Assembly (NCBI GenBank): GCA_024762875.1
Contig: JANTGR010000003.1
Span: 1-57,976 of the forward strand
DNA from: Sulfurospirillum sp.
Lineage (GTDB): Bacteria > Campylobacterota > Campylobacteria > Campylobacterales > QNZT01
DNA: 57,976 nt
Direction: 5' to 3'
Positions 347-57,976 of the stretch are shown in pieces. How positions within the stretch are numbered: the first letter of the stretch is position 1; the number at the start of each line of letters is the position of its first letter. The translations under genes were made by a program, and so were the position numbers. The notes under the pieces were generated by a model that saw nothing but the letters and a program-made list of their open reading frames with translations, was not told where the DNA came from and did no database searches.

Positions 347-356
347 TATCATGATA
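347..356. repeat. TATCATGATA copy 1
   Basis: Perfect 10-mer in the infA-rpmJ spacer. Confidence 0.95.
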
Positions 357-536
357 GGCAACATCTTCAAGTCATTTAACTTTTTATCTATTTCCACTTG
401 AAATAACGAACGAAATGGTTTACTGATATATGCAAACCAATGATTGAAAAAACAGTGGGATTTTGTCAATCATTCTTCATATAGTCCCGTCATTCGACAA
501 TAGAGGCGGGCATTATAGCCTAGATAAGGTTAAAAA

Positions 537-755
537 TTACTTATATCTAAAAGTAATTCGTCCTTTGTCTAAACTATAAGGAGTCAATTCAACTTTTACT
601 TTATCACCTAACATGATTTTTATATAGTGCATTCTCATTTTTCCTGCGATATGACACAATACTTTATGTCCATTTTCAAGTTCTACTTGAAATGTTGCAT
701 TTGGTAACGCTTCAATAATTGTACCGTCAATTTCTATGACATCATCTTTAGCCAT
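537..755 (-). CDS. infA: translation initiation factor IF-1
   Basis: 72 aa, [41 protein letters not shown]..., a typical IF-1 S1-like fold. Follows map. Confidence 0.95.
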
Positions 756-792
756 CTAAATCCTTTATATAGTTATCATAGATATTTCACCG

Positions 793-1551
793 CTAAGGCA
801 GTGAAAGTATCTCTGCTTTATTATTTATAATTGCCACTGTATGCTCATAATGACTGCCACGAAGGCCGTCTTGTGATACTACAGACCATTTGTCATCTAG
901 AATTTTAGCTGTCGGAAGTTTCTGACAGATCATAGGTTCTAGACAAAATACCATACCATTTTTTATTTTCGGGCCCTGTTTTGGATTAGGAAATTCTAAA
1001 TAATTTGGTATTTCCGGTTCTTCATGTGGCTTTCTACCGATGCCATGACCGCAAAAACCATGTAAAGGGACATATCCGCGCCCTTCAATAAACTGTTCTA
1101 TTTCAAAACTTAACTCTTTAAAACGCATTCCTGCTTTTATTGTTTCTATAGCAAAATAGAGTGTATCTTTGGCACAGGCTATCAGTGCTTCATCTTCTTG
1201 ACTGATTTTACCTATTGGCATCGTAATGGCAGCATCACCATACCATCCGTCCTTTTCCACACCAATATCTAAACCCAAAATATCACCCTCTTGGACCACA
1301 GTTTCATTTGGAATACCATGAATAATCACTTCATTAAGCGAAGTACACACACCAGCGGGGAATCCATAAAGTCCTTTAAATGCAGGTCTTGCATCTAAAG
1401 ATGCAATAAATTCTTCACCCATTTGATTAATATGCGCCAATGTCATACCAGGTCTGACATACGTTTCTAAGTGTTTGAGAGTTTTACCGACATACGAGTT
1501 TGAAACCCTCAATGAATCAATTTCAGAGGGTTTCTTGATTGTAATGCCCAT
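793..1551 (-). CDS. map: type I methionine aminopeptidase
   Basis: 252 aa with the metal-ligand context (GDILGLDIG, HGIGR, EPMI..). Sits after secY. Confidence 0.93.
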   Translation of the reverse strand: MGITIKKPSEIDSLRVSNSYVGKTLKHLETYVRPGMTLAHINQMGEEFIASLDARPAFKGLYGFPAGVCTSLNEVIIHGIPNETVVQEGDILGLDIGVEKDGWYGDAAITMPIGKISQEDEALIACAKDTLYFAIETIKAGMRFKELSFEIEQFIEGRGYVPLHGFCGHGIGRKPHEEPEIPNYLEFPNPKQGPKIKNGMVFCLEPMICQKLPTAKILDDKWSVVSQDGLRGSHYEHTVAIINNKAEILSLP

Positions 1552-1555
1552 TAGT

Positions 1556-2815
1556 TTACAAGCCTACCGTATTCAATGAATTATATTTGTTCATATAAAT
1601 CTGTGCTTCTATTTTTCTCATCGTATCAAGTGCAACTTGTACAACAATCAAGACAGCCACACCACCAAAATAAAATGGTACACCCATCGCTTTTACCAAT
1701 ATAAATGGTAGTGTTGAGATCAGACCAAGGTATATTGCACCGCCAAATGTCAAGCGACTGGCAACTTCATTGATAAAACCTTCTGTACTCGCACCTGGTC
1801 TGACACCAGGGATAAATCCGCCTTGTTTCTTCAGGTTTTCCGATATGTCTTTTGCATTAAATACGATTGACGCATAAAAGAAAGCAAAAAAGACAACACC
1901 CAAAAACATCAAAATGTTAAATAAATATCCACCAGGACTCAATGCATCAGAAATAGCCAATACATAAGGATTTGTACTACCATGCAATAAAGTAGCAGGC
2001 ATCATCAAAATAGCAGATGCAAAAATTGGTGGTATAACACCAGAGAGATTCACTTTGATAGGTATATAATTCATCACTCTCTTGTTTTGATTGTCCATCA
2101 TCGTTTTTCTTGAATACGAAATAGGTACACGTCTTTCACCAAGTTCAACATAGATAATTGCACCAATAGTAATCAAAATAACAGCAAACATACCAATTAC
2201 TGATAAGAAATTCAAGTCACCAGTATTAACAAGGTTGATTGTACCAGCAATTGCTGATGGAATACCAGAAACAATACCCGCAAAAATTATCAAGGAGATA
2301 CCGTTACCAATACCACGCTGTGTAATTTGTTCACCAATCCACATCAACAACATTGTACCTGTCAGCATCGAAAATGCAGCTACCGGTACGAAAATACTCA
2401 TATCTATCATGATAGCACTCTGACCACCGCCACTCATGCTTTGAAGTCCCATTGAAACACCTACAGCCTGTACCAGTGTGATAACAACCGTAGCATAACG
2501 GATGATTTGCATATATTTAGTCATACCATCACGTTCTTTTTTCATTTGACCTAAAGTTGGAAAAGTAGCAGCGAGAAGTTCCATGATAATGGAAGCAGTA
2601 ATATAAGGCATAATGCCTAGTGAAATGATACTCAGTCGGCTGACCGCATTTCCACTAAACATATTTACCATACCAAGTGCGTTATTTGAATTTGAATCAA
2701 AAAACTGTTTTATAACATCTACATTTACACCAGGTACTGGCACATAGGATAAAATCCTATAAGCAAACAAGAAACCAAGTGTAATCAGTATCTTATTTGT
2801 TAAATCTTTGCTCAT
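1556..2815 (-). CDS. secY: preprotein translocase subunit SecY
   Basis: 419 aa polytopic membrane protein ([33 protein letters not shown]). Sits at the end of the spc operon. Confidence 0.97.
2405..2414. repeat. TATCATGATA copy 2
   Basis: Perfect. Inside secY, read as I-M-I. Confidence 0.95.
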
Positions 2816-3216
2816 TTTTCCATACCGCTATATGTGACATTGTCATCTTTGATTTTAGAAGCCAATGCTTTTGCACCTGCACCAATCAATTTAATTTTTT
2901 GTACTGAGCCCTGTACTTTATGTACAGATTTAATTGTTTCCATAGAAATCTCAGCCAACTCTGCAATTTTACTTACTTTGTCAACATTGATTGAATATGG
3001 TTTGATTACTCTTGAAGTAAATCCTACTTTAGGTAATCTTCTTTGAAGTGGTTGTTGACCACCTTCAAATCCTCTTTTTTGGCTATAACCAGTTCTACTT
3101 TTTTGACCATTTTGACCACGAGAAGCTGTTTTACCCATTCCACTACCTTGCCCTCGGCCTTTTCTCTTTCTATTTTTAGTAGAGTTATCCGCTGGTGTTA
3201 GATTATGTAATGCCAT
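2812..3216 (-). CDS. rplO: 50S ribosomal protein L15
   Basis: 134 aa with a Gly/Arg/Lys-rich N-terminus ([24 protein letters not shown]). 4-nt overlap with secY. Confidence 0.93.
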
Positions 3217-3235
3217 CTAATATCCTTCAATCTAA

Positions 3236-3685
3236 TTATTGTTTGATCATAGTAAGTGCTTTTACAGTCGCTCTTACTACATTTGCCGGGTTATTTGAAC
3301 CAAGAGATTTAGTCAAGATATCTTTGATACCAGCAAGCTCTAAAACAGGTCTAGTTGCTCCACCGGCAATCACACCAGTACCTTCACTGGCTGGTTTTAA
3401 CAAAATTCTACTTGCATTAAACTTAATCTCGATGTCATGCGCGATTGTAGAACCTTTGATATTGACATTTACCAGGTTTTTAAATGCATCGTCAACAGCT
3501 TTTTTGATAGCATCAGGTACTTCTTTGGCTTTACCAGATCCATAACCTACAATACCTTCTTTGTTACCTACAACAACTAAAGCAGTAAATCTAAATCTTC
3601 TACCACCTTTAACAACTTTTGTAACTCTTCCGATGTTTACAATAGCTTCTTCAAAATCTTCTCTGTTAATTTTTTCCATATTCAT
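3236..3685 (-). CDS. rpsE: 30S ribosomal protein S5
   Basis: 149 aa with [26 protein letters not shown]. There is no rpmD (L30) ORF between rpsE and rplO. Confidence 0.95.
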
Positions 3686-3689
3686 AGCC

Positions 3690-4046
3690 TTACACCGTAA
3701 TCCCGTTATTTCTTAAGCCATCAGCAAATGCTGCTACTACACCATGATAATTGTTTCCTCTTTTGTCAAAAACAACTTTTTCGATGCCTTTATCTTTCAG
3801 ACTTTGTGCAAAAACTTTTGCAATTTCTTCTGCTGCATTTTTACTTGCATTTTGTCCTAATTTTTTACCATCGACACTTGCTAAAGTTACAGAGTCAACA
3901 TCATTGATTGCCTGTGCATAAAGATGTCTAGTTGATTTAAAAAGGGCAACTCTTGGAGTCTGTGCTGTACCAGAAATTTTAGCTCTGACTCTTTTTATTC
4001 TTCTTGCTTTTAATGCATTTTTCTTTTTTAATAATTTTGTTCTCAT
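3690..4046 (-). CDS. rplR: 50S ribosomal protein L18
   Basis: 118 aa, basic N-terminus, C-terminal [16 protein letters not shown]. Operon position fits. Confidence 0.93.
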
Positions 4047-4054
4047 CTCAATCC

Positions 4055-4591
4055 CTATTTACCAGCTGTCTTACCAGCTTTTCTGATGATATGCTCTTCA
4101 ACATACTTAACACCTTTTCCTTTATATGGCTCAGGCGGTCTAAAGCTTCTAATCTCTGCAGCGATTTGTCCAATAACTTGTTTATCATCACCACTAATAG
4201 TTACAATATTTTTTTCTACACCGATTTTCACATCTTTTGGAAAATCATAGTTGATTGGGTGAGAATGACCAAGTTGTAATTCCAAAACATTACCTTTAAC
4301 AGCTGCTTTATAACCAACACCGTTGATTTCAAGTTGTCTTGTATAACCATCAGTTAGACCAACAATGATATTTTGCGCTAGCGCTCTAAATGTTCCCCAG
4401 AAAGCACGATCTTGTCTATCATCACCTTTTGGTGCGAAAACGATCTCTTCTTTCTCAACAGATACATTTACCAAATCTTTTGTATCAAGTTCTTTAGTGA
4501 CATTACCTTTTTTAAAAGTAAGCACTGAACCATCTAATTTTACTTCAATACCAGCTGGTATTGAAACGGGTTGTTTCCCTATTCTTGACAT
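4055..4591 (-). CDS. rplF: 50S ribosomal protein L6
   Basis: 178 aa, starts [17 protein letters not shown]. Confidence 0.95.
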
Positions 4592-4643
4592 ATTTTTCCT
4601 TTTTACTTGTCTACGATTTACTCGAATGCCGTAAAAATATCTG

Positions 4644-5039
4644 CTACCAAATACTGCAGATTATTTCGCCGCCAACGCCTTCTTTATAAGCAACTTCATT
4701 ACTTACAACGCCTTTAGAGGTACTCACAATAATCGTACCATAGCCATTTTTAAATTTTTTAATTTCACTGTTTCCTTTATAAACACGACGACCAGGCTTG
4801 GAAATCTTTTTGATTTCATTAATCACACGATTACCATTATCATCATATTTTAAAACAACTTTAATAAATTTTTTATTGCCTTCTTCTACTACATTGTAAC
4901 TATCAATATATCCTTTTTCCTGGATAATCTTTACAACTGATTCAACCAATTTTGAATGAAGCAATTGTGTTACTTCAAGTTTTCTCATAGAAGCATTTCT
5001 TATTCTTGTTAGCGCATCTGCTACTAAATCATTTACCAT
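4644..5039 (-). CDS. rpsH: 30S ribosomal protein S8
   Basis: 131 aa, starts [16 protein letters not shown]. Confidence 0.95.
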
Positions 5040-5048
5040 TGCTATCCC

Positions 5049-5234
5049 TTACCAGCTTGATTTTTTGATTCCAGGTAATTTACCTTCGTTTGCCATTTTT
5101 CTGAAACAAACTCTACAAATACCAAAATCTCTATATACTGAATGAGGTCTTCCACAGATTTGACATCGTGTATAACCTCTTACTTTGAACTTAGGATCTC
5201 TTTTCGCTTTTGCGATCATTGATTTCTTTGCCAT
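5049..5234 (-). CDS. rpsN: 30S ribosomal protein S14 (short, zinc-binding type Z)
   Basis: 61 aa with [22 protein letters not shown] (two CxxC pairs). Confidence 0.93.
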
Positions 5235-5782
5235 TATTCACGTCCCTTTGCAAATGGTACACCAAACATTTCCAACATTTTGAAAGCTTCTTTATCATCT
5301 TCTGTTGTTGTTACAAATGTAAGATTCATACCGTGTGTTTTAATAATATCATCAAATTTTACTTCAGGGAATACCAATTGCTCATCAAGCCCAAAGTTAT
5401 AATTTCCTCTACCATCAAATCCGTTTCTTGGTACACCTCTAAAATCTTTTACTCTAGGAAGCGTAATAGAAATCAGTTTATCCAAGAAAACATACATATT
5501 TTCTCCACGAAGTGTTACCATGACACCAACTGGAAAATCTTCTCTTAGTTTAAAACCAGCGATAGATTTTTTCGCTTTTGTAACAACAGCTTTTTGACCT
5601 GCTATCAGTGAAATAGTATCTACTACGTTCTGTAATACTTTTGTATCTTTTGCTTCTTCACTAGCACCAACACTGATAGAAATTTTTTCCAAACCAGGAA
5701 TCAACATAGGATTCTTGATTTCAAACTCTTCAGCCAATGCAGCTCTGATTGTTGCATCATATTTTTCTTTTAATCTTGCCAT
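5234..5782 (-). CDS. rplE: 50S ribosomal protein L5
   Basis: 182 aa, MARLKEKYD..., [17 protein letters not shown]. Confidence 0.95.
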
Positions 5783-5787
5783 CTCTA

Positions 5788-6021
5788 TTACCCTTCTACT
5801 TTAGTAACATTTGAAATGTGAATAGGTGTTTCTCTGTTCTCAAAACCACCTTGAGGATTTTCCTCAGTAGGCTTAATAGATTTTTTAGCTATTTTACACC
5901 CAGCTACAATCACTTGTGATGTTTTTGGTAATACTTGCAATACTTCAGCTTCTTTACCTTTATCATCTCCAGCAATGATCTTTACAGTATCACCTTTTTT
6001 GATATCAAACTTAACTGCCAT
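5788..6021 (-). CDS. rplX: 50S ribosomal protein L24
   Basis: 77 aa with a KOW-like [20 protein letters not shown]. Confidence 0.9.
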
Positions 6022-6389
6022 TATAAAACCTCCGGTGCAAGTGAAACAATTTTCATGAAACCTGCATATCTAACTTCACGACCTATTGGACCAAAAATAC
6101 GTGTTCCTATCGGCTCACTTTTTCCATCAAGGATCACGGCAGCATTTTCATCAAAACGAATTAAAGAACCATTTTCTCTTTGAATCTCTTTTTTTGTTCT
6201 GACAACAACTGCTTTAACAACTTGACCTTTTTTTACTTTTCCATTTGGAATCGCTTTTTTTACTGATGCAACAATTACATCACCAACACTTGCATATCTT
6301 CTTTTACTACCACCAAGTACTTTGATACACATGATTTCTTTAGCACCACTGTTATCTCCAACAGCAAGTCTTGTAAAACCTTGAATCAT
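6021..6389 (-). CDS. rplN: 50S ribosomal protein L14
   Basis: 122 aa, starts [28 protein letters not shown]. Confidence 0.96.
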
Positions 6390-6640
6390 GCCCCAACTCC
6401 TCTAGCAGTAATCTCTTTTAATCTAAATGTTTTTGTTTTAGACATTGGTCTGCATTCAATTGCAGTCACACTATCACCAACATTTGCATCATTAGACTCA
6501 TCATGTACCAGATATTTTTTAAATCGTTTTACAATTTTATGATATCTAGGATGTGTCACTTTTCTCTCAACTAAAACAGTAACTGTTTTCTCGCCAGCCT
6601 TTTTAACAACTGTACCTTTGATTTCTCTTTTTAAAGCCAT
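6386..6640 (-). CDS. rpsQ: 30S ribosomal protein S17
   Basis: 84 aa with [25 protein letters not shown]. Confidence 0.93.
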
Positions 6641-6642
6641 TA

Positions 6643-6843
6643 TTACGCCTTATTGTTAGCTGCAGTCATTGCTGTTTGGATTCTAGCAATATCTTTTCTA
6701 ACTTCTTTAATTTCATTTGGGTTGCTTAATTGCATCGTTCTAAGCTTAGCTTTAAGCTTAAAAAGCAATAACTTCTTCTCTTTCAACAACTCGCTTAACG
6801 CTTTTGCGTCTTTCTCTTGTATCTCAGTAAATTTCATTTTCAT
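6643..6843 (-). CDS. rpmC: 50S ribosomal protein L29
   Basis: 66 aa helical protein in the L16-L29-S17 position. Confidence 0.85.
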
Positions 6844-7249
6844 TCTCTCGAGTTATAATTTTTGTTTTAAATGGTAATTTATGCTTAGCCAATGTTAATG
6901 CTTCTCTTGCTAATTCATCACTGACACCAGCCATTTCAAATATAATTCTTCCTGGCTTAACATTCATAACCCATTTATCAACAGCACCTTTACCTTTACC
7001 CATTCTTGTTTCAAGTGGTTTAGCAGTTAAAGGTTTATCTGGGAAAACACGAATCCAAGATTTTGCTTCTCTTTTAACATGTCTGGTCATTGCGATACGC
7101 GCTGCTTCAATTTGACGTGAATCAATTCTGCCAGCTTCGGTAGCTTTGAGTGCTATTTCACCAAATGCAATAGAGTTACCTTTGTAGGATTTTCCTCTAT
7201 TTCTACCTTTCATCACTTTTCTGTATTTTGTTCTTTTAGGCATCAACAT
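6824..7249 (-). CDS. rplP: 50S ribosomal protein L16
   Basis: 141 aa, starts [19 protein letters not shown]. Confidence 0.95.
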
Positions 7250-7251
7250 GA

Positions 7252-7941
7252 CTATTCACCTCTTCTCTTGTTTCTAGGTTTTTTTTCTTCTCTTTTTTCA
7301 GCTGGAATACCTTTTGCCAGTACCTCACCTTTAAAGATCCATACTTTGATACCTATGATTCCATAAGTAGTATGCGCTTCTGCAAAACCATAATCTATTC
7401 TTGCTCTTAAAGTATGAAGAGGAACTCTTCCTTCAAGGTACCACTCAGTTCTTGCCATTTCAGCACCACCAAGACGACCTGCAACAGAAACTTTAATTCC
7501 TTTTGCTCCACCTTTCATCGCACCTTGCATCACTTTTTTCATTGCTCTTCTAAAGGCAACTCTTCTCTCAAGTTGTGTTGCTACATTTTCAGCAGCCAAC
7601 TGAGCAGATGTTTGAGGTTTTCTCTCTTCTTGGATATTTACATTAACTTCTTTACCGACAAGTTTGTGAAGTTTTTTTCTTAACTTCTCAATGTCCGCAC
7701 CTTTTTTACCGATAATGATTCCTGGTCTTGCTGAAACTATAGTAACTCTTAGTTTTTTTGCAGTTCTTTCAATAATAATTTGACTGACACCTGCATAATA
7801 AAGTTCTTTTTTTACAAAAGTTCTAATCTTGTGATCTTCACCAATATTTTGTACTGTATTTTCAGAAGATGGATACCATCTAGAATCCCAGTTTCTATTA
7901 AGTCCTAGTCTAAGACCTATAGGATTTACTTTTTGACCCAT
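7252..7941 (-). CDS. rpsC: 30S ribosomal protein S3
   Basis: 229 aa, [25 protein letters not shown] domain. Confidence 0.96.
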
Positions 7942-7943
7942 GG

Positions 7944-8303
7944 TTATGCATCCTTCTTAGTAGTTTTTTTTGTTGTTTCATCTTTTTTCGCCGGTCCAAC
8001 TTCTACCATGATGTGAGATGTTGGCTTTAAAATTCTAGATGCACTACCTCTTGCTCTTGGTCTAAATCTTTTAAGAACCGGACCTTTATCAACACGACAA
8101 GAGATTACTTCAACTTCTTCAGGTTCATAATCACCATTTGCTACAGCTGAAGCAATTACCTTAGAGATAATACCCGCAGCTTTATTTGGTGCAAACTCCA
8201 AAGATGCAAGAGCATATTCAGCATTCATACCTTGCACTTCTTTTGCAATCAATCTTGCTTTTGTAGGTGAGAGTCTTATAAATTTTAATGTTGCTTTACT
8301 CAT
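7944..8303 (-). CDS. rplV: 50S ribosomal protein L22
   Basis: 119 aa with [18 protein letters not shown]. Operon position fits. Confidence 0.92.
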
Positions 8304-8304
8304 A

Positions 8305-8583
8305 TTAACCTACCTTCTTTTGTACAGAGCCCTTATGACCCTTAAAAGTTCTTGTAGGTGCAAACTCACCTAACTTATAACCAACATGATTTTCAGTGAT
8401 GTAAACAGGAATAAAATTTCTACCGTTATGTACACTAAATGTTAAACCAATCATATCAGGAAGAATCATACTTCTTCTTGACCATGTTTTGATAGGTTTT
8501 TTATCTCCACTCTCTTTTGCTTTTAACACTTTTTTAACCAAGTGATCGTCAACAAATGGACCTTTTTTCAGACTTCTAGCCAT
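8305..8583 (-). CDS. rpsS: 30S ribosomal protein S19
   Basis: 92 aa, starts [15 protein letters not shown], with [24 protein letters not shown]. Confidence 0.96.
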
Positions 8584-9414
8584 CTATCTTCCTTTCTTTC
8601 TTGAGATAATGAGTTTATCACTAGCTTTTTTTCTTCTAGTTTTATAACCTTTAGTCGGCATACCCCATGGACTCACTGGATGTCTACTTCCATTTGTCTT
8701 ACCTTCACCACCACCATGCGGGTGATCAATCGGGTTCATCGCAGAACCACGAGTTTGAGGACGTTTCCCCATATGTCTGCTTCTACCGGCTTTACCAATG
8801 ACTACATTGGCCCAATCTTCGTTACCAACAGTACCAATTGTTGCCATACATTCTGAAAGTATTTGTCTCATCTCACCACTTGGGAGTCTTAAAACAACAT
8901 ATTTCTCTTCTTTACCCATTAGTTGTGCATAACCACCGGCTGAACGTGCAATTTGAGCACCTTTACCTGGTTTCATCTCTACATTATGGATAATTGTACC
9001 AATTGGAATATTTTTCATTTTCATTGCATTACCAGGCTTGATGTCAAGTCCAGATTCTGCTGCCATTACTTTATCTCCAACTTTGATACCTGATGGTTGA
9101 ATAATATATCTTTTTTCACCATCTGTGTAAGTTACCAGTGCAATTCTACAATTTCTATACGGATCGTATTCTATTGCCGATACGGTACCTTCTATGTCAA
9201 ATTTTCTTCTTTTAAAATCGATAATACGATAGTGCTTTTTAGCACCTGCTTCTCTATGGCGAGAAGTGATTCTACCGTTATTATTTCTACCAGCACTTCT
9301 TGGAAGTTTTTTAAGAAGACTTGGAACACTTGCTTTAGCTGTAATATCGCTAGAGTCAAGACCAGTCATATATCTTCTAGAAGGCGTATAAGGTCTGTAT
9401 GATTTTATAGCCAT
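8584..9414 (-). CDS. rplB: 50S ribosomal protein L2
   Basis: 276 aa with [19 protein letters not shown]. Confidence 0.97.
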
Positions 9415-9415
9415 C

Positions 9416-9697
9416 TTATACCTCCAAACTTTCTATTTTAGCACCTTCAGGAAGTGTGACATAAAACTTTTTATAGTTATCTCTTCTACCTGCGATACCT
9501 TTAAATCTCTTTGCTTTACCCTCTTGTCTAAGTGAATTAACTTTAAGTGGAATAAAACCAAAATACTCTCTTAATACTTCTTTCAGGCCATTTTTAGTCA
9601 TTTTAGGACTTGTTTGTATTACTACAACACCATCTTCCTGAAGACCTAAACTCTTCTCAGTATAAAGAATTGCTTTAATATCTGTAATATCTGCCAT
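9416..9697 (-). CDS. rplW: 50S ribosomal protein L23
   Basis: The track ORF runs to 9730. I place the start at the internal ATG at 9697 ([15 protein letters not shown]), just after the rplD stop at 9699. Confidence 0.88.
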
Positions 9698-9698
9698 C

Positions 9699-10313
9699 TT
9701 AGTCCTCTTTCGTGAGTGTTTCAAAAACACTTTTTTCTATTACAATAGCATCAAATGCTGCTGCAGTATAACCGTTTAACTCGTGAGCTTCAACTAAATA
9801 ACTGTTTGGTTCATTTCTAAATGCATAGAATGTTTTCTCATCTACTAACTCTTTAACTACCAATGCATCTCTTGCATCAATATTTTTCAAATATGCAGCT
9901 GCATCTTTTGTTTTACCTGATTCAATCGCAACACTGTCAACAACAAAAAGTTTTCCATTTACTGCTTTTTCATTTATAGCAAATAATAAAGCAAGTTTTT
10001 TCTGCTTTTTATTGACTTTTTGATTATAGTTTCTGTTCGCTTTTGGACCATGAGAAACTCCACCGCCTACCCAGATTGGGCTTCTGGTAGAACCGGCACG
10101 TGCACGTCCTCCACCTTTTTGGGCGTATGGTTTCTTACCACCACCGCTTACTTCAGCTCTTGTTTTTGTATTTGCAGTATTTGCTCTTAATGCTGCTTGA
10201 TAAGACTTTACATATAGATACAAGTTATGTGGATCAATCTCACTGTAACTTGCTGGTAAAGCGATCTCACCATTTGCTTTAAGGTTATTATCTAATACAA
10301 TTGCTTTACTCAT
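9699..10313 (-). CDS. rplD: 50S ribosomal protein L4
   Basis: 204 aa with [29 protein letters not shown]. Confidence 0.95.
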
Positions 10314-10891: not shown

Positions 10892-10898
10892 AAACTCC

Positions 10899-48925: not shown

Positions 48926-49384
48926 TTAATTTTCCTGGCACTCTTTGCAGATACCATATAGCTGCATCAAATGATTTGTCAAAACAAAACCGTTTTCCTG
49001 GGCAATTTTATGCTGCAAATGCTCAATTTCTTCATCTTCAAACTCCACAATTTTCCCACACTTTTCACAGATGATATGATCATGATGTTCTTTGTTGGCA
49101 AGTTCAAATTTTTTACCCTGTATACCCAATGAAATCGAGGTGGCAAATCCATTCTCTTCTAAAAGATTCAATGTTCTATACACTGTCGTTATGCCGGTAT
49201 TTAACTGTGGATGTTTCTTCTTCACCAAGTCATAAAGTTCTTCAGGTGTAAAATGTTTGGGATGGTTATAGAGTGTTTGCAGTATTGCTTCTCTTTGGGC
49301 TGTGAACTTTAGCCCATTATTTTTAAGAAGCTGTTTAAATTCCAATAAAAGCTTTTTAAAACTTAAATTTTTTGTCTCTAACAT
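48926..49384 (-). CDS. Fur family transcriptional regulator (Fur/PerR-type)
   Basis: 152 aa. Winged helix TTVYRTLNLLEENG. Metal sites HHDHIICEKCGKIVEF and CKEC. Confidence 0.85.
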   Translation of the reverse strand: MLETKNLSFKKLLLEFKQLLKNNGLKFTAQREAILQTLYNHPKHFTPEELYDLVKKKHPQLNTGITTVYRTLNLLEENGFATSISLGIQGKKFELANKEHHDHIICEKCGKIVEFEDEEIEHLQHKIAQENGFVLTNHLMQLYGICKECQEN

Positions 49385-49463: not shown

Positions 49464-49985
49464 TTAACGTTTTAGGGTAGCAGATGTTTCCACATCAGTT
49501 GCTTGCAAAACCAATTCATCAGATGCCGTAGTCGTAATATCATAATCTGATGTCAAAAAAGCAGCTGCTGCATTTTCTGCATTTTCAAATTCATTACAAC
49601 TTGCATTGTCAAGATCTGGCTTTGGCGAAGAAACTCTTGAAAAATAGAGCGCATTGTCTTTTATTTTATAGGTGGCACTGAGTATATAACAATCTGCTAA
49701 AATATTGACTTTTGTATCGGTAAAATCCATCTGCATTTTATAGGTTCTTACACTGCCTGTTGTATCATAAAGATACTTGTCAAGATCCATTTTAAGAGAA
49801 GTCCATGTTTTCTCTTTGAGGATCGCACCTACATCTTCACTGCCACTTAATGAGCCAAAAGTCTTTCCACTGCCTACAGTATTTGGCCCAGTAGTGTTGG
49901 AGTCTGAACCTGAAGTTGCGCTGCTGTTACACCCGCTCATCCATAGAAGTGCTGCAGTTAAACCCAGTACAATGCTATTTTTCAT
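49464..49985 (-). CDS. hypothetical lipoprotein
   Basis: 173 aa, lipobox LWMSGC. No family recognised. Confidence 0.55.
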   Translation of the reverse strand: MKNSIVLGLTAALLWMSGCNSSATSGSDSNTTGPNTVGSGKTFGSLSGSEDVGAILKEKTWTSLKMDLDKYLYDTTGSVRTYKMQMDFTDTKVNILADCYILSATYKIKDNALYFSRVSSPKPDLDNASCNEFENAENAAAAFLTSDYDITTTASDELVLQATDVETSATLKR

Positions 49986-50068
49986 GATATTTTCCTATAT
50001 ATGTATTACTATATTCAATATCGTCAAAAATAGTATTTACTTTAATCCATAAAAATATGTTACACTCT

Positions 50069-50078
50069 TATCATGATA
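50069..50078. repeat. TATCATGATA copy 22
   Basis: Perfect. Lies 21 nt upstream of the 50099 start, in the leader. Confidence 0.95.
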
Positions 50079-50098
50079 ACATGATTAAAGGAGTCATA

Positions 50099-50677
50099 AT
50101 GAAATATCTTTTATTGGTATTAAGTTTATTGTTTTTTTCTGCCTGTTCACCAAAATATAAAATCGTCAAAGAGTACCATCCACCCCAACTGACAGACAGC
50201 AGCAATACCTCTGTTTGTCTTGGGCTGTGTGAAACCAAACGCAGTGCCTGCAAACAAAAATGTGAAAGCACTTTTAACAGCTGTAAAGTCAAAGCCCACC
50301 GCATCGCACTCCAGCGGTATAATAAAAAGATGCAGGATTATACAAAGCAGCTTGAAAACTATGTAGATGCTGTTGATGATAACGGATTTGAGAGTCGTTT
50401 TATCTTTATGAACTACGGGTATGGCTATCCTTACTATTATTATCCGCGTCCTTATGGATATGCCAACAGTCTGTTTTGGTATGATCCGATGCCATATTAT
50501 GGTTCTTACCGCAGCCGGCCAAAACCCAAAAAGCCAAGTTTAGAGCAGGAAAACCTCAAAGCTGAAGCAGAGTTTTGTGATCTTGACTGTGGTTGTACGC
50601 ATACTTTTGACACCTGTTATACAGGTTGTGGCGGGACTATCGTCTCCAAAAAGCTCTGCATAGAAAATTGTCCATAA
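50099..50677 (+). CDS. Cys-rich lipoprotein with Tyr/Pro-rich low-complexity segment
   Basis: Start at the ATG at 50099, 5 nt after AAGGAG. Lipobox FFSAC. GYGYPYYYYPRPYGY. Confidence 0.55.
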   Translation: MKYLLLVLSLLFFSACSPKYKIVKEYHPPQLTDSSNTSVCLGLCETKRSACKQKCESTFNSCKVKAHRIALQRYNKKMQDYTKQLENYVDAVDDNGFESRFIFMNYGYGYPYYYYPRPYGYANSLFWYDPMPYYGSYRSRPKPKKPSLEQENLKAEAEFCDLDCGCTHTFDTCYTGCGGTIVSKKLCIENCP

Positions 50678-51510: not shown

Positions 51511-52260
51511 TCAAAATCCCAATTCTGCTTTTTTGTACTTCAAAACACTTCCATCATCATTGGCAAAATAGATATTTCCCTCATCATCCAGACAGATACC
51601 TTCCTGGGCAAAAGCAGGTAGTTTTTTCGTCCATGCAACTTTTTTGGCCTGCAAATCATACCCAATCAACAAATCCTCTTTATCACTCACCATATACAAC
51701 ATACTATCATGATAGAAAAGTCCGGCAATATCCTGGTGCCCTGGATCGATAATCTCTTCAATCACAACTTTTTTCTTGTGGCTCTTGGCTACTTTGATAA
51801 CCACAGAAGGATCTTTTTTGGGATATTTTTTGTTAGATTGATTAGAGAGGTAGAGTGAGTGTTGATCTTGTGTAATACCTTCCAAACCATGTTTTTTATC
51901 TTTTTTCAGGATGAGATGACCTTGAAATTCACGCTTGATACGGATCTTGTTTTTGACATGCAGCTCTTTTTGTGAAACAACCAAAATCGCATCATCTCCT
52001 TCAACAGCAAACAACAATTCACCACGGTCATCGTCACAACTCACCCCTTCCAGGTCATAATTGCCGATGCGTTTTTTCCGTAAAATTTTACCATCCTTGC
52101 CCATCTCATAAATCTTTCCTTCATCATTGGCAACAAAAAGTGTCTGAGTGATTGTGGAGTAGCAGATACCCGATGCTTCAGGGATCTTGGCAATCTCATG
52201 CGATGATCCCAAACAGCCACTTAAGAATAATAAAGGTAAAATCACTATATAACGTATCAT
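51511..52260 (-). CDS. lipoprotein, SdiA-regulated/YjiK-like beta-propeller (tentative)
   Basis: Start at [16 protein letters not shown]. Repeated D.EG motifs (ASGICYS, LEGVSCDD, LEGITQD, QEGICLDDEGNIYFANDDG). Confidence 0.5.
   Translation of the reverse strand: MIRYIVILPLLFLSGCLGSSHEIAKIPEASGICYSTITQTLFVANDEGKIYEMGKDGKILRKKRIGNYDLEGVSCDDDRGELLFAVEGDDAILVVSQKELHVKNKIRIKREFQGHLILKKDKKHGLEGITQDQHSLYLSNQSNKKYPKKDPSVVIKVAKSHKKKVVIEEIIDPGHQDIAGLFYHDSMLYMVSDKEDLLIGYDLQAKKVAWTKKLPAFAQEGICLDDEGNIYFANDDGSVLKYKKAELGF
51705..51714. repeat. TATCATGATA copy 23
   Basis: Perfect. Inside the propeller lipoprotein gene, Y-H-D. Confidence 0.95.
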
Positions 52261-52344
52261 TTGAAATCCTTTTTCAATCATAGTATAAAATATAGTATAG
52301 CAAATAATCATAAAGACGATATACAATAAAAAGGCACAAGATTG

Positions 52345-53472
52345 ATGAAACCGATAACTTTATGTATCTTCAGCTTCATTGTTTTTTGGGGCATTGCCTG
52401 CTCATCTACGCCACAAGGTGATAACTCCCAACCAAACCAACAAACAACAACAATTCCAATCCAAAACAATCCAAAAATAGAGAATGCAGCACCTCAGCCT
52501 ATCATCTATCATGATAAGGCAAATATCCCACAACTTCAAAGTGGCTATGGTACGTTCGGTACGCATGAAGTCGCTACCAAAGATATCAACAATACCCGAT
52601 ATGACTACAAGCCAGACTATAAAGCACTCCACCTTCAAACAACACTCTATTATCCAAAAGATCTTCCACTTTCACGCCCTACACTCTTCTTTTACAGTGG
52701 CTATGGTATGCACGATCCATCCGCATATAAAGGGCTTTTTTACTTTGTCGCTTCCAAAGGATATAACATCATCTTTCTGACCTGCCCCCGTGTTGAACTG
52801 GGAAATTTACCTGCTGCAACCCGTGATGCCATTGCAGCATTTTCAAGCCATATCGATATCAAAAAGGTAGGCTTTATCGGACATTCTATGGGTGCTGGTG
52901 TCACATTTTGGATGGCAAATACACTCGCTGATGAAGTTGGAGATGATGTGCGTATCCTCTTTCCAATGGCCTCAGGCTATACTGTTTTTAATGACAGCAG
53001 ACTGATTCCCGCTACAAAAGCCATTCATCTACCCCAAAACAGTAAAATGATACTACAAGTTTATGCCAGGGATTATTCTACCGATATCCGAATAGGTATG
53101 GATATCTTTTTAAATACTGACATCCAGGACAAAGAATATATGCTGATTTATGGTGACAGTCAACATATTGCCGACCATGGCAGCTGTATGAGTAAAAATG
53201 GTTATGATGTGGATGCCATGATGCAAAGAAGTATCTACAAAGCACTTGATGCTTTGATGGATGAAGGATTTAATGACAACCACCAGGCAAGAGAAAAGCT
53301 GATGAAATCTCTACAGGATGATCCTTATTTTCATCCATATATAGGTAAAATGCCTGATATAGAGATCGATAAACAATATATTCTTCCCCAGGAGCATTAT
53401 CCTTTTAATTGCTCGATCGGCGGAGGTGTAGTCAGTCAACGAAAGGAGTATTGTAACGCTCTTGGATTATAA
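52345..53472 (+). CDS. alpha/beta hydrolase lipoprotein
   Basis: Lipobox WGIAC. Nucleophile elbow GHSMGAG. Confidence 0.65.
   Translation: MKPITLCIFSFIVFWGIACSSTPQGDNSQPNQQTTTIPIQNNPKIENAAPQPIIYHDKANIPQLQSGYGTFGTHEVATKDINNTRYDYKPDYKALHLQTTLYYPKDLPLSRPTLFFYSGYGMHDPSAYKGLFYFVASKGYNIIFLTCPRVELGNLPAATRDAIAAFSSHIDIKKVGFIGHSMGAGVTFWMANTLADEVGDDVRILFPMASGYTVFNDSRLIPATKAIHLPQNSKMILQVYARDYSTDIRIGMDIFLNTDIQDKEYMLIYGDSQHIADHGSCMSKNGYDVDAMMQRSIYKALDALMDEGFNDNHQAREKLMKSLQDDPYFHPYIGKMPDIEIDKQYILPQEHYPFNCSIGGGVVSQRKEYCNALGL
52507..52516. repeat. TATCATGATA copy 24
   Basis: Perfect. Inside the hydrolase lipoprotein gene, Y-H-D. Confidence 0.95.
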
Positions 53473-54580
53473 GCATATACACACGCCAGCCTATATACTG
53501 GAAGAAAAAAAATTACGTAAAAATCTGGAACTGCTTTCGTACATACAAAAAAAAAGTGGTGCCAAAATACTCCTGGCACTCAAAGGATTTGCTTTTAAAG
53601 CAAGTTTTGAGATGATGAGAACCTATCTCTCAGGCTGCTGTGCGAGTGGATTGCATGAGGCAAAACTGGCACATGAACTTTTTAAAGGTGAAGTACATAC
53701 CTATGCGCCTGCCTTTAAAGAAGATGAGATAGAAGAAATTATCAGTATCAGTCATCATCTGGTTTTCAACTCATTTTCTCAGTGGGAAAAGTACAAAGAA
53801 CAGGCAAAGGGTAAAGTCTCCTGCGGACTGCGTATCAATCCTGAAGTCTCTGCAGCTCCTACAGATCTTTACAATCCCTGTGCCGCATACTCCCGTCTGG
53901 GCATCACCCAAGAAAACTTTTATCATGATAGACTTGAGGGCATCGAGGGGCTGCACTTTCATGCACTCTGTGAAGAAGATGCAGATGCCCTGGAAACAGT
54001 ACTTGAAAGCTTTGAAAAAAAGTTTGGCAGCGCTATATCTCAGATGAAGTGGATCAACTTTGGCGGCGGTCATCACATCACCAAAGCAGGCTATGATATC
54101 GAAAAGCTTATCATGATAATCCAGGCGTTTAAATCACGCTATGATGTGGAAGTCTATCTTGAACCAGGTGAAGCAGTAGGCTGGCAGACTGGCGTACTAG
54201 TCGCTACGGTACTGGATATCGTACATAACGGTATCGATATCGCTATCCTTGATACTTCAGCTGAAGCACATATGCCTGACACCATCATCATGCCTTACTG
54301 CTCAGAAGTGAGAGGTGCTGGCAGGACAGGTGAGAAACCCTACGATTACAGACTGGCAGGCAATACCTGTTTGGCAGGTGATATCATGGGGGATTACTCT
54401 TTTGACAGTCCGCTCAAAGTAGGCGATAAAATCATCTTTAAAGACCAGATCCACTATACTATCGTCAAAAATACCACCTTCAACGGTATCCCCCTGCCTT
54501 CTATCATGATAGAAAAAGAGAATGGAAAAGTAGAACTTGTTAACCAATTTGGATATGATACCTATAAAAACCGGCTCTAA
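53462..54580 (+). CDS. nspC: carboxynorspermidine decarboxylase
   Basis: 372 aa, PLP-dependent group IV decarboxylase-like (LALKGFA, INFGGGHH, EPGEAV, CLAGD). TTG start overlapping the previous gene. Confidence 0.82.
   Translation: MDYKHIHTPAYILEEKKLRKNLELLSYIQKKSGAKILLALKGFAFKASFEMMRTYLSGCCASGLHEAKLAHELFKGEVHTYAPAFKEDEIEEIISISHHLVFNSFSQWEKYKEQAKGKVSCGLRINPEVSAAPTDLYNPCAAYSRLGITQENFYHDRLEGIEGLHFHALCEEDADALETVLESFEKKFGSAISQMKWINFGGGHHITKAGYDIEKLIMIIQAFKSRYDVEVYLEPGEAVGWQTGVLVATVLDIVHNGIDIAILDTSAEAHMPDTIIMPYCSEVRGAGRTGEKPYDYRLAGNTCLAGDIMGDYSFDSPLKVGDKIIFKDQIHYTIVKNTTFNGIPLPSIMIEKENGKVELVNQFGYDTYKNRL
53921..53930. repeat. TATCATGATA copy 25
   Basis: Perfect. Inside nspC, Y-H-D. Confidence 0.95.
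54109..54118. repeat. TATCATGATA copy 26
   Basis: Perfect. Inside nspC, I-M-I. Confidence 0.95.
54502..54511. repeat. TATCATGATA copy 27
   Basis: Perfect. Inside nspC, I-M-I. Confidence 0.95.
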
Positions 54581-56160: not shown

Positions 56161-56184
56161 AAAAAAACCTTCTTTGATGTTTAT

Positions 56185-56329: not shown

Positions 56330-56361
56330 TTCGCCCGATGTCCTAACAAACACAATTTTGT

Positions 56362-56436
56362 GGCCCGTTCGTCTAGTGGTTAGGACACTGGCCTCTCACG
56401 CCGGTAACAGGGGTTCGAATCCCCTACGGGTCACCA
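56362..56436 (+). tRNA. tRNA-Glu (anticodon CUC), CCA encoded
   Basis: Hand-folded cloverleaf. Acceptor GGCCCGT/ACGGGTC (one G-U). D arm GTCT/GGAC. Anticodon stem CTGGC/GCCGG with loop C-T-CTC-A-C. T arm AGGGG-TTCGAAT-CCCCT. Discriminator A plus CCA. 75 nt. Confidence 0.9.
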
Positions 56437-56446
56437 GTTCAATGCT

Positions 56447-56569
56447 CTACTTGCCAAATAGATAATCAAACTCTTTTGACTCTTTAAATCTAAACATAGT
56501 AGATTTTGTAACAAAATCACTGCTAAATTGCTCAACCAATACTCTTAATCTTTTTAATGTTACCTTCAT
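56447..56569 (-). CDS. possible 40-aa small ORF
   Basis: Not in the track. AAAAGGAGCAAAG-ATG gives an excellent RBS. Encodes MKVTLKRLRVLVEQFSSDFVTKSTMFRFKESKEFDYLFGK*. No homology recognised. Confidence 0.3.
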   Translation of the reverse strand: MKVTLKRLRVLVEQFSSDFVTKSTMFRFKESKEFDYLFGK

Positions 56570-56671
56570 CTTTGCTCCTTTTATGCCTAAGATACAAACA
56601 ACATCGCACAAAAAGAAAAAAAATTAATACCTTATAAGAAATTTTTATGGAAAATAGGCTATTAAGTTACT

Positions 56672-57658
56672 TTAGGTAAATATATTATACTCTTTTTTAA
56701 TCATCTCGATGATGGATCGATCCTCTGCATAGATAAAAGCATAATTGAAATTTGCTCCTTTGAGTATCTCCAGTATATCTTCATTATTATAGTAATAACT
56801 AGGACGTTTGACACCCTCTACTTTTGTCTTGGGTGGTGTTAAGACGATACTTTTGACGATCCATGCACTTGGGGCATTGACATACAGCCTTGCTTCTATG
56901 ATATCTTCCAGATTATCACAAACGATGACTGTTCTGTCATTTTTACTCTGTTCATTGATTCCCGGTTCTCCATCTATAAAGATAGGTATAAATTGTTTGA
57001 TGTATTTTATTTTTTCTATGGCATATTCAAAATGGTGCTGCTGACAAAAAGCTACTACTTTTAGCAGATGTTCCAGATGAAACGGTACCATCTCTTTATA
57101 TTGATAGACATATTTTTCTACCTTGAAAGTTGAGCGAAAGAGCGTATCAGATATGATATATCCATCAACTTCTTTCACCAGTCGCTTTGCCTTGGGTCGC
57201 AGCTTTTTCATCAATTCCAGATTACTGGAGATAAAAATCTTTTTTTTACTGTTTAGTACCATCTCAAAAGCTTTTTTCCAGTCATCCGGTATAAAATCAA
57301 TATCACTTTTACGCAATAGTATCATTCTTAAAAAGCTGAGTTCATGCCTATTTAGATAGTAAAAATCCGCCTCAGAATCTGCTACAACATATTGTGTCAA
57401 TCTAAATGCAGCCTCTTCTATATCATCTACTTTGATCCAGGCCAAGTCACTGTCGCTTATCGCAAGCGTTGCATCATTATATATGATCGCCTGTGCACCT
57501 CTGCCAATGGCTTCTTCTATCTCAGAAGGGACAGAAGAGATAAAGAGTGATCCCTCACCGACATTTGACACATAGACTGTAGCACTATAGATTTCTTCTA
57601 TTTTTGAAGTCTCATTGATTTGCCCCTCTATGGTTTGTACTAATGTTTCTATTTGCAT
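56672..57658 (-). CDS. hypothetical protein (328 aa)
   Basis: Long ORF with no conserved catalytic motif that I can name. Confidence 0.55.
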   Translation of the reverse strand: MQIETLVQTIEGQINETSKIEEIYSATVYVSNVGEGSLFISSVPSEIEEAIGRGAQAIIYNDATLAISDSDLAWIKVDDIEEAAFRLTQYVVADSEADFYYLNRHELSFLRMILLRKSDIDFIPDDWKKAFEMVLNSKKKIFISSNLELMKKLRPKAKRLVKEVDGYIISDTLFRSTFKVEKYVYQYKEMVPFHLEHLLKVVAFCQQHHFEYAIEKIKYIKQFIPIFIDGEPGINEQSKNDRTVIVCDNLEDIIEARLYVNAPSAWIVKSIVLTPPKTKVEGVKRPSYYYNNEDILEILKGANFNYAFIYAEDRSIIEMIKKEYNIFT

Positions 57659-57748
57659 TTATTATCCTGCGTTTTGGTGTCTGATTTTAGCATAACTATG
57701 GTGTTATACAAAATTATGTTAAAATAATTTATTTTACAAAGGATTTTT

Positions 57749-57976
57749 ATGAAAAAAATTTTTTTTATCATGATAAGTACGTTTTTACTGCACAGCACAA
57801 TCTATGCTGATATGATATATTTTAAAAACATCAACCATAAGCAACTGAGGATAAATAATTTGGAAGGAAATTTTCTCTTTCAGGATCCTGACTATAAAGG
57901 AGAAAAAGTTTTACTCTTTTTCTTTGGTATTGAGTGTCCATACTGTTTAAAAGAATTACCCGACATCATCAATCTC
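57749..57976 (+). CDS. thioredoxin-fold thiol:disulfide oxidoreductase (TlpA/ResA-like), 5' part, runs off the window
   Basis: MKKIFFIMISTFLLHSTIYA signal peptide, then ...KVLLFFFGIECPYCLKELP (CxxC active site). Confidence 0.7.
   Translation, partial: MKKIFFIMISTFLLHSTIYADMIYFKNINHKQLRINNLEGNFLFQDPDYKGEKVLLFFFGIECPYCLKELPDIINL
57766..57775. repeat. TATCATGATA copy 28
   Basis: Perfect. Inside the thioredoxin-fold gene, I-M-I. Confidence 0.95.

Follow-up and report, generated by a model that had tools for sequence, protein, structure and literature searches.

The window analyzed here, i.e., the whole 57,976-nucleotide stretch of contig JANTGR010000003.1 (assembly GCA_024762875.1, Sulfurospirillum sp.), is a piece of ordinary Campylobacterales chromosome. 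It includes a ribosomal-protein operon (with secY, map and infA), followed by alr, glnS, nrdB, pcm, recJ and pyrG, and by genes for a two-component system, polyamine metabolism, a Fur-family protein and tRNA-Glu. Its PyrG protein is closest to those of uncultured Campylobacterales, the nearest named organisms being 'Campylobacteraceae bacterium 4484_4' (80%) and Sulfurospirillum (75%), in keeping with the placement in Campylobacterota made by the initial annotation of this DNA. Dispersed through these genes and the spacers between them is a short palindrome, TATCATGATA, of which the 58-kb window holds 28 perfect copies, or about one every 2 kb.

This count is far beyond what composition would provide. 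The expectation in the window is 0.17 copies under a zero-order model and 0.13–0.40 under Markov models of orders 1–3, while dinucleotide-preserving shuffles of the window (n = 100) yield a mean of 0.14 and a maximum of one. The computed scan returns exactly the 28 starts that the initial annotation had read by eye, with none missing and none extra; its rough estimates of ~60% A+T and ~0.2 expected copies were likewise close to the computed values (38.7% G+C; 0.17). That annotation had proposed, as checks, a higher-order Markov comparison, a codon-aware null and a repetition of the count in related genomes. The excess stands in the first, as given above, and is kept in the second: the 24 coding-sequence copies compare with 5.3 ± 1.8 under a synonymous-codon shuffle (300 runs, maximum 10) and with 0.28 under a codon-order shuffle (maximum 3).

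The excess resides in the full 10–12-mer and not in the shorter strings nested within it. TCATGA occurs 53 times in the window, ATCATGAT 35 times and TATCATGATA 28 times; outside TATCATGATA, TCATGA is found 25 times with 19 expected, and the 220 occurrences of CATG equal the expectation. The symmetry extends by one base on either side, with a pyrimidine 5' of 26 of the 28 copies, a purine 3' of 25 (both figures exactly as first annotated) and both at 23. Past ±1 the flanks are random and the copies are not part of a longer repeat unit. The Hamming spectrum is nearly all-or-none: against 28 copies at distance 0 there are 12 at distance 1 (4–9 expected) and 58 at distance 2 (48–73 expected). All 10 of the one-mismatch copies in the earlier list are correct, and two had been overlooked, namely those at 4838 and 37700.

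The same picture holds on a wider basis. The analysis as a whole draws on the 58 kb of the window and roughly 0.5 Mb of fetched contigs representing partial genomes, which are designated below by L numbers. Pooling the motif-carrying DNA (the window, L083, L084, L245, L252 and 37 metagenome contigs; 42 sequences, 328 kb) gives 251 perfect copies versus 2.0 expected; since the metagenome contigs were picked for a close pair of perfect copies, the pooled count and density are inflated, while the spectrum of one-off variants should be undistorted.

Placement of the copies and their imprint on proteins

Twenty-four of the 28 copies lie inside the coding sequences of unrelated genes on both strands, and the rest are in spacers or across gene ends. 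The coding copies occupy only the two frames that are free of stops, TAT-CAT-GAT-A, read as Tyr-His-Asp (YHD), and T-ATC-ATG-ATA, read as Ile-Met-Ile (IMI); the third frame contains TGA. This restriction to two frames makes YHD the most over-represented tripeptide of the window proteins (14 versus 0.9 expected). Similarly, all 12 IMI tripeptides of the window are spelled T-ATC-ATG-ATA, although ATA is the least used Ile codon.

The YHD frame is used twice in the alanine racemase gene (16471–17490, minus strand), at 16530–16539 and 16890–16899, the residues in the L251 orthologue being YFD at the first of these, and twice in the CN-hydrolase gene (~29681–30409, plus). Of the latter two copies, that at 29732–29741 is kept in L245 and L252, with WDS or FSG in relatives without the motif, whereas that at 29828–29837 is absent from L245 (FTQ), L085 (FDS) and L249 (FDR). 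A gene for a class-I S-adenosylmethionine (SAM) methyltransferase (34448–35137, minus) carries a YHD copy at 34555–34564 that is kept in L084 and L252 and replaced by YHS in L085 and YYD in L249. The remaining YHD copies are in a dCache_3 sensor gene (copy 37973–37982; gene 37730–38647, plus), a lipoprotein gene (47009–47018; 46461–47153, minus), a putative saccharopine-dehydrogenase-like gene, so read from its translation (47692–47701; 47323–48507, plus), codons 5–7 of an open reading frame (ORF) for a Cys-rich 206-residue product (50069–50078; 50057–50677, plus), an SdiA-regulated-domain gene (51705–51714; 51511–52326, minus), the gene of a 376-residue protein with no assigned function (52507–52516; 52342–53472, plus) and, at 53921–53930, a gene at 53462–54580 (plus) whose translation suggests a carboxynorspermidine-decarboxylase-like enzyme.

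The last of these genes also bears two copies in the IMI frame (54109–54118 and 54502–54511), as does the Na/Ca exchanger gene (12045–13187, plus) at 12113–12122 and 12779–12788. Single IMI copies are found in secY (2405–2414; gene 1556–2815, minus), in the CDP-alcohol phosphatidyltransferase gene (11449–11458; 11407–11958, minus; LTI in the L085 orthologue), in the alanine racemase gene (17095–17104; IFI in L251), in the SulP transporter gene (19019–19028; 17735–19375, minus; VMI in L251) and in the VTT-domain gene (44039–44048; 43985–44398, minus; FLL in L249).

Elsewhere the palindrome is placed across the signals that delimit genes. The copy at 13192–13201 begins 5 nt past the exchanger stop codon, and its ATG (13196) opens a 90-residue ORF with GGAG just upstream. 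At 30402–30411 the palindrome spans an ATGA overlap between the stop codon of the CN-hydrolase gene (TGA) and the start codon of pcm (ATG, 30406); this copy is kept in L245 and L252. In the copy at 35132–35141, kept in L084 and L252, the CAT at 35135–35137 is the minus-strand start codon (35137) of the above class-I SAM methyltransferase gene, and in that at 43983–43992 the TCA at 43985–43987 is the stop codon of the VTT-domain gene (minus). Copies in spacers include 347–356, between infA and rpsM, which possibly belongs to a 66-residue ORF (269–469, minus) and would there read IMI; 26221–26230, between the convergent genes 25460–26197 (plus) and glnS (26276–28525, minus); and 57766–57775, just beyond the start of the gene 56672–57658 (minus), which may encode IMI near the N-terminus of an ORF that runs from 57749 (plus) out of the window.

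Among the one-mismatch copies, start codons are supplied by CATCATGATA at 45731–45740, whose CAT (45734–45736) starts a major facilitator superfamily gene (44402–45736, minus), and by TTTCATGATA at 49980–49989, whose CAT (49983–49985) starts the gene 49464–49985 (minus). The copy TATCATGATC at 29717–29726, which precedes the perfect copy at 29732 by 15 nt, likewise gives YHD in the CN-hydrolase product, and TATCATGACA at 31727–31736 lies in recJ (minus), where it encodes CHD; the orthologous position of L083 is a perfect copy encoding YHD. The others are TATCATCATA at 4838–4847 (inner position), TACCATGATA at 13403–13412, TATCATGATG at 36562–36571, TATTATGATA at 37700–37709 (inner C>T), TGTCATGATA at 45083–45092, and three in a region that has no perfect copy: TATCATGACA at 20583–20592 (an outer-position transition), TATCATGATC at 20660–20669 (outermost position) and again TATCATGACA at 21420–21429. 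In that region the longest ORFs of a beta-propeller (LVIVD-like) lipoprotein (20448–21629, minus) and of RNase HII (21424–22074, plus) overlap by ~200 nt; their true starts are probably internal, the signal peptide of the lipoprotein beginning at about residue 54 of its translation and the conserved portion of RNase HII at about residue 35.

Codon-level alignments with orthologues display no indels at any coding site examined, only substitutions, and the residues found at the site positions in motif-free relatives include YFD, IFI, VMI, YHE, YHS, LTI and FDS. The absence of gaps together with these near-miss residues indicates that copies arise by substitution where the sequence was already close. 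Hence, the copies override weak protein constraint and are neither insertions nor protein or RNA motifs. This bears out the earlier view that they represent neither a mobile element nor a shared protein domain, as does the fact that the genes concerned are unrelated and that both frames and both strands are used. The longest motif-free stretch (2415–11448; 9 kb) is the ribosomal-protein operon, and such a gap agrees with the view that the word can arise only where constraint on the protein allows.

A few further features of the window deserve mention in their own right. The glutaminyl-tRNA synthetase encoded by glnS has 749 residues and, judged by eye, ends in an extension of the GatB/YqeY type; the Pfam matches of the L086 orthologue are to tRNA-synt_1c and GatB_Yqey. 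GATATC is ~2.5-fold over-represented (47 versus 19). The 8-mers TGATATCA and AGATATCT recur 3–7 times per locus in several relatives (among the window, L083, L084 and L245–L247), including some without the main motif; TGATATCA corresponds to the two half-sites of the motif in reversed order. These excesses may merely reflect a codon effect (GAT-ATC). One gene at the edge of the window is matched on 2–4 kb Logan contigs from SRR19843166 and SRR19843167.

Related words in sister lineages and the recognition profile

Among the matches listed, the 80 loci of GTDB representative genomes, all with PyrG ≤71% identical, have no copy of TATCATGATA. Closer relatives were reached by a protein search with PyrG and fetching of the contigs of its homologues. 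Those with PyrG 86–89% identical (L083, L084, L245, L246 and L252–L254) carry TATCATGATA at 0.4–0.8 per kb. These lineages come from NCBI metagenome-assembled genomes (MAGs), JGI metagenomes and Logan assemblies, so that the motif is not an assembly artifact. Further, a pattern scan of metagenomes for two close copies recovered 37 low-GC contigs with dispersed, abundant copies (180 in 202 kb).

The repetition of the count in relatives thus places TATCATGATA in one clade of uncultured Campylobacterales, and it also reveals what the initial annotation was in no position to see, namely different palindromes in sister lineages. L085 (GCA_054011135.1; PyrG 84%) and L255 (GCA_027084135.1; PyrG 82%) have no copy of TATCATGATA; instead, they contain 27 (in 21.6 kb) and 14 (in 17 kb) copies, respectively, of TAGTACTA (consensus TTAGTACTAA), which is absent from the window. 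In coding DNA this word reads Leu-Val-Leu or x-Ser-Thr-x, and in L085 it has rewritten proteins, e.g., GINEK to GLSTS and AIVFS to ALVLS. In a neighbor-joining tree of the single gene product PyrG, the TATCATGATA lineages (window, L083, L084, L245 and L252) form one clade and the TAGTACTA lineages (L085 and L255) its sister. Neither word is found in the L086, L247, L249 and L251 loci (PyrG 79–82%). A weak excess of GATCGATC in L086, L247 and L248 (4–6 copies versus 0.1–0.25 expected) is possibly a weaker iterated palindrome. In the more distant L007 (JBNKKI010000033.1; PyrG 70%), 11 dispersed copies of TACATGTA in 16 kb, with 0.3 expected, yield the consensus CTTACATGTAAG, and the word of this relative is TTACATGTAA. 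The bin of L007 is labeled Gammaproteobacteria but its PyrG resembles those of Sulfurimonadaceae; the label seems doubtful. The three words share one build, with TA arms around a CATG- or GTAC-centered core: YTATCATGATAR and CTTACATGTAAG have the CATG center in common, whereas TTACATGTAA and TTAGTACTAA have the arms in common.

Within each clade the sites are conserved well beyond the surrounding DNA, though each of the following tests rests on few sites. Between the window and L252 (74% DNA identity), all four alignable sites are perfect as against 6.2% of all 10-mers conserved; L245 and L252 have kept 4 of 8 (background 9.3%, p = 0.004), L083 and L084 7 of 8 (background 46%, p = 0.02) and the lineages with the GTAC-centered word 7 of 11 (background 20%, p = 0.002). 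At two sites gained or lost between L083 and L084 many bases differ, as might suggest patch conversion; both lie in locally hypervariable stretches (73–78% identity), and we set this explanation aside.

The one-off variants in the pooled 328 kb outline how the word is read. Enriched variants are confined to the outer two positions and are mostly transitions, such as T>C at position 1 (22 versus 3.0) and A>G at position 2 (17 versus 1.6), with enrichments of up to 7–11 fold. In contrast, changes within the inner TCATGA do not exceed background, and position 5 has none. The C>T variant that would be the signature of very-short-patch (VSP) repair occurs 3 times versus 2.6 expected, i.e., with neither depletion nor enrichment. 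Likewise, the GTAC-centered word is strict in TAGTACTA and loose in the outermost base. An all-or-none TCATGA core with graded outer two bases resembles the recognition site of an enzyme; we infer that the greatest constraint at the center, being typical of restriction/modification recognition, would be unusual for helix-turn-helix dimers. The cores themselves are not avoided (observed/expected 0.90 for CATG and 1.04 for GTAC), and no restriction pressure seems to act on them, as would fit cores that are protected or whose cognate nuclease is absent. Other tetranucleotides are avoided: GGCC (0.28), GATC (0.44) and CGCG (0.57) in the window's clade (window, L083, L084 and L245 pooled), and ACGT (0.09), GCGC (0.13), GGCC (0.13) and CGCG (0.21) in L085. 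These differing sets indicate that the window's clade and L085 face different restriction systems.

The string is also encountered in quite different arrangements. A scan of viral contigs for motif pairs found no phage with the dispersed, host-like density; what it did recover were pairs due to chance, tandem repeats and arrays of clustered copies. As phages infecting this host are not known, this negative says little on whether the process acts on all DNA in the cell or on the chromosome only. Two IMG/VR viral contigs of 27–30% G+C, L104 (443–2150) and L108 (520–2210), have sixteen TATCATGATA within ~2 kb of repetitive DNA with few long ORFs. From its layout, this cluster resembles an iteron, operator or centromere array, and some phage protein probably binds the palindrome. 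Metagenome contigs of 61–65% G+C contain a conserved, intergenic, operator-like composite palindrome, GTGA(TATCATGA)nTAGC(TATCATGA)nTATCAC, that is unrelated to the dispersed motif (L157, 7976–8013; L177, 6751–6796, between glycosyltransferase-like and cyclase-like genes; L195, 334–379; L217, 5753–5798; L228, 2957–3002). Tandem repeats with TATCATGATA in the unit (L106, L118, L132 and L227, with a period of ~170 nt; L116, 24 nt; L200) are a different phenomenon as well.

A probable DNA-level drive with a switched specificity

Taken together, the data show that a sequence-specific process makes and maintains the word at the level of DNA, that recognition has a strict 6–8-bp core with graded arms, and that the specificity is characteristic of whole clades and has switched. 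The palindrome was put into the chromosome by point substitutions, through a process directed at DNA rather than protein or RNA. We hold it highly probable (about 0.85) that YTATCATGATAR is a watermark of the highly iterated palindrome (HIP) type, i.e., the outcome of a DNA-level drive of the kind behind HIPs and the uptake signal sequences (USS).

The data narrow the three candidate roles that the initial annotation had named side by side. Regarding how such a drive might work, we lean tentatively, and at somewhat less than even odds, toward a 'self' tag linked to methylation, which would give a bias to natural transformation or recombination and have spread by molecular drive. In outline, a specificity factor of the enzyme type, exchangeable between lineages and most plausibly an orphan DNA methyltransferase, would read the all-or-none core, and a second reader would add the preference for TA flanks. 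The marked site might then serve as a 'self' tag favoring uptake or recombination of close-kin DNA during natural transformation; tag-bearing alleles would therefore spread by molecular drive and subsequently be retained. Such a scheme would extend the methylated RAATTY signal of Campylobacter jejuni to a rare 10–12-bp word, and parallels the current reading of the cyanobacterial palindrome HIP1. In C. jejuni, uptake is restricted to DNA whose RAATTY palindromes have been methylated by the methyltransferase CtsM (PMC10046745, citing Beauchamp et al. 2017). For HIP1, methylated copies raise transformation at any placement, as its authors expect of an uptake sequence (bioRxiv 10.1101/2024.09.10.611283), and the abundance of HIP1 varies together with the machinery for pili and competence (bioRxiv 10.64898/2026.06.24.733823). 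A bolder and slightly less probable proposal is that of modular watermarking in Campylobacterales, whereby a conserved reader with a preference for TA arms might cooperate with a specificity for the core (TCATGA, GTAC or CATG) that is exchangeable and probably resides in a methyltransferase, the two writing a clade-specific 8–12-bp palindrome throughout the chromosome as a kin tag for DNA uptake or recombination.

Several points weigh against a methylation-linked uptake tag. In the window no gene was found for a DNA methyltransferase, a nuclease, a competence function or a DNA receptor, and the Pfam tables of the related contigs, which cover a small part of any one genome, list no such gene either. 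A regular-expression screen for DPPY-type and PCQ-type DNA methyltransferases across 408 ORFs (from the window, L083, L084 and the motif-rich metagenome contigs) gave a single match, which is BamA. As a fraction of each genome is covered, the missing methyltransferase and competence genes are a limited negative and weigh weakly. Classical uptake sequences are not palindromic, and we know of no Type II methyltransferase that reads 10–12 bp, so that the second reader has to be assumed. The gaps between copies, with a coefficient of variation of ~1.1 by hand calculation, have no regularity and thus give no sign of selection for regular coverage, in a window too short for the 10–90 kb periodicity reported for HIP1. 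Finally, drive, conservation and clade switching fit a repair ratchet or binding-site selection equally well. Separately, the motif-free L086 encodes a C5 DNA methyltransferase (8645–9694) and a PD-(D/E)XK protein (7894–8652), probably a restriction-modification pair, between glnS and pyrG.

The first of these two competing explanations, which we judge unlikely, is methylation-linked biased repair, whereby an orphan methyltransferase would mark the core and a nicking or VSP-type enzyme reading core and flank would resolve mismatches toward the palindrome, leaving the sites themselves functionless. In Elhai's model for HIPs, such a repair ratchet creates and protects sites, and the spectrum of near misses is used as an argument (PMC4390886); the deviations observed here, which cluster at the ends of the word while a core of the methyltransferase type is all-or-none, follow that argument. 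The different words of sister clades likewise parallel the alternate cyanobacterial HIPs that are paired with alternate methyltransferases, the constant TA arms around varying cores suggest a conserved reader with a variable methyltransferase, like the 'G-meC' of Elhai's model, and protection of formed sites would explain the hyperconservation. Against this, VSP-type repair fixes only the deaminated base and leaves the recruitment of all ten positions unexplained, and no methyltransferase or Vsr gene was seen in the window or the 408 screened ORFs. Helicobacter and Campylobacter, the best-known members of the phylum, are not known to have MutS1, MutL or MutH. Should the same hold for this lineage, a version based on methyl-directed mismatch repair would be without obvious machinery. 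Moreover, Xu et al. argue that the conservation of HIP1 sites favors selection over continual replenishment by biased repair (PMC5861425).

Selection of this sort is central to the second, still less probable, explanation, that the copies are binding sites of an abundant, clade-specific dimeric protein that organizes the chromosome, with roughly a thousand sites per genome. Analogues would be SeqA, Noc, SlmA and MatP. A role in nucleoid structure has been proposed for HIP1 by Xu et al. (PMC5861425). A perfect 10–12-bp palindrome has the size of a dimer footprint, and hyperconservation is what selection would give. Proteins that bind TATCATGATA probably do exist, given the operator- or iteron-like clusters of the same 10-mer in unrelated viral and GC-rich contigs. 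Yet the profile of the dispersed sites, with the center most constrained and the arms least, is the reverse of that of most helix-turn-helix dimer sites, and the spacing is no more even than random. Further, an essential architectural protein would need to have changed its specificity entirely between sister clades and to be absent in the next relatives.

An origin as remnants of mobile elements, whether miniature elements or excision footprints of TA-flanked IS630/Tc1-type elements, has very little left to recommend it. Such a footprint consists of a short inverted core bordered on either side by TA, and in this sense TA+TCA/TGA+TA, TA+CA/TG+TA and TA+GT/AC+TA are all footprint-shaped. However, insertion adds bases, +8 in the case of TATCATGATA, which would shift the frame, whereas the sites align free of gaps; the Tc1/IS630 footprint is ruled out as the sites are substitutions and not insertions. 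There is also no longer repeat unit around the copies and no transposase in the window. Chance or composition, protein-level selection for YHD and IMI, or an RNA motif can be dismissed as practically negligible: the motif is A+T-rich in an A+T-rich genome and TAT, CAT, GAT and ATC are preferred codons, but it is ~70–200 times over the nulls (24 versus 5.3 even in the synonymous shuffle), YHD and IMI lie at varying positions of unrelated proteins and are absent from sister-clade orthologues, copies also occur in spacers and across start and stop codons, and a sequence that reads identically on the two strands, irrespective of gene orientation, is unlikely to have a role in RNA.

Significance and relation to known systems

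The palindrome system is real and strong and apparently undescribed. In the literature searched, papers containing the TATCATGATA string never treat it as a genomic repeat, none was found linking iterated palindromes with Campylobacterota, and the 'iterated palindrome' literature since 2012 returned by our search is all cyanobacterial; the initial annotation, which knew of no description of the motif, was thus right. Until now, short palindromes of such abundance have been regarded as peculiar to cyanobacteria, and their origin and function are debated between biased repair, nucleoid structure and an uptake signal. With the present case, a system like HIP1 or like the uptake sequences is found in a new phylum, and several properties of this independent occurrence make the question tractable. 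With sister clades using different words and the next relatives none, the responsible genes should be findable by presence/absence comparison; about ten existing MAGs should suffice to isolate the specificity gene or genes, which has not been possible for HIP1 in 30 years. The rewriting of proteins, with the signature tripeptides YHD and IMI, offers a quantitative measure of the strength of the drive versus protein constraint. On the practical side, the motif is a near-unique barcode for binning the contigs of the clade, the two-copy pattern scan having already pulled motif-rich contigs from metagenomes, and in methylated form it would be the first addition to consider for DNA meant to transform these organisms.

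Several familiar kinds of repeat were considered and rejected. Miniature inverted-repeat transposable elements and repetitive extragenic palindromic elements do not match copies that are mostly inside genes and gap-free relative to orthologues. A transcription-factor regulon, such as Fur boxes (a Fur-family gene is at 48926–49384), does not match ~0.5 copies per kb with 24 of 28 inside coding sequence. A tandem array or one of clustered regularly interspaced short palindromic repeats (CRISPR) does not match gaps of 56 to 9044 nt with unrelated flanks. An apparent 'super-HIP', GTTGCAAC, with 130 copies in the 21.6 kb of L073 (Chromatium weissei DSM 5161), is itself a very large CRISPR array with a 73-nt period. 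That array occupies 1–9500 and beyond, its repeat ends in ...TGGATATTGAGTTGCAAC, and it is unrelated to the dispersed motif.

Of the systems already known, HIP1 (GCGATCGC) and the alternate HIPs are matched in most respects, in line with the resemblance suggested by the initial annotation. Like these, the word is a short perfect palindrome that occurs about once per 1–2 kb, with an excess over expectation in the range of tens- to hundreds-fold (for HIP1, 15- to 300-fold; PMC5861425), and is dispersed through coding and non-coding DNA outside any longer repeat (PMC4390886, PMC5861425). In both, orthologous sites are conserved beyond background, one-off deviations fall at the outermost bases around a 6-bp core of the restriction/modification type, and some lineages have another palindrome instead. 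The differences are equally clear: the present word belongs to Campylobacterota and not Cyanobacteria; it is A+T-rich and 10–12 bp long as opposed to G+C-rich and 8 bp; and its core is TCATGA/CATG as opposed to CGATCG/GATC, with GATC being avoided here. Whereas the description of HIP1 includes cognate, often orphan, methyltransferases for nested sites, none was found in the partial genomes at hand; and whereas HIP1 is nearly phylum-wide, the word here changes between lineages with PyrG 82–89% identical.

With the DNA uptake sequences (DUS) of Neisseriaceae and the USS of Pasteurellaceae, the system has in common a 9–12-bp word at about one per 1–2 kb, the use of permissive coding frames with local distortion of proteins, and clade specificity with related dialects. 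It departs from them in being a perfect palindrome and not an asymmetric word, a ComP-type receptor and uptake bias being features of DUS and USS. Inverted pairs of DUS and USS often form terminators, while only ~1 of the 28 copies here lies between convergent genes. Should modular watermarking prove true, it would be the first system of the HIP/DUS type outside cyanobacteria, Neisseriaceae and Pasteurellaceae.

Closest in phylogenetic terms is RAATTY of C. jejuni, which is likewise palindromic, comes from the same phylum and labels DNA as 'self' in natural transformation (PMC10046745; bioRxiv 10.1101/2024.09.10.611283). RAATTY is a degenerate 6-mer that composition alone places every ~60 bp, so that no enrichment is needed, whereas the word described here is a rare 10–12-mer enriched more than 100-fold. 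Nevertheless, the phylum has in RAATTY a proven methylated-palindrome uptake signal, and this provides a concrete candidate mechanism for the iterated palindromes of its Campylobacterales members.

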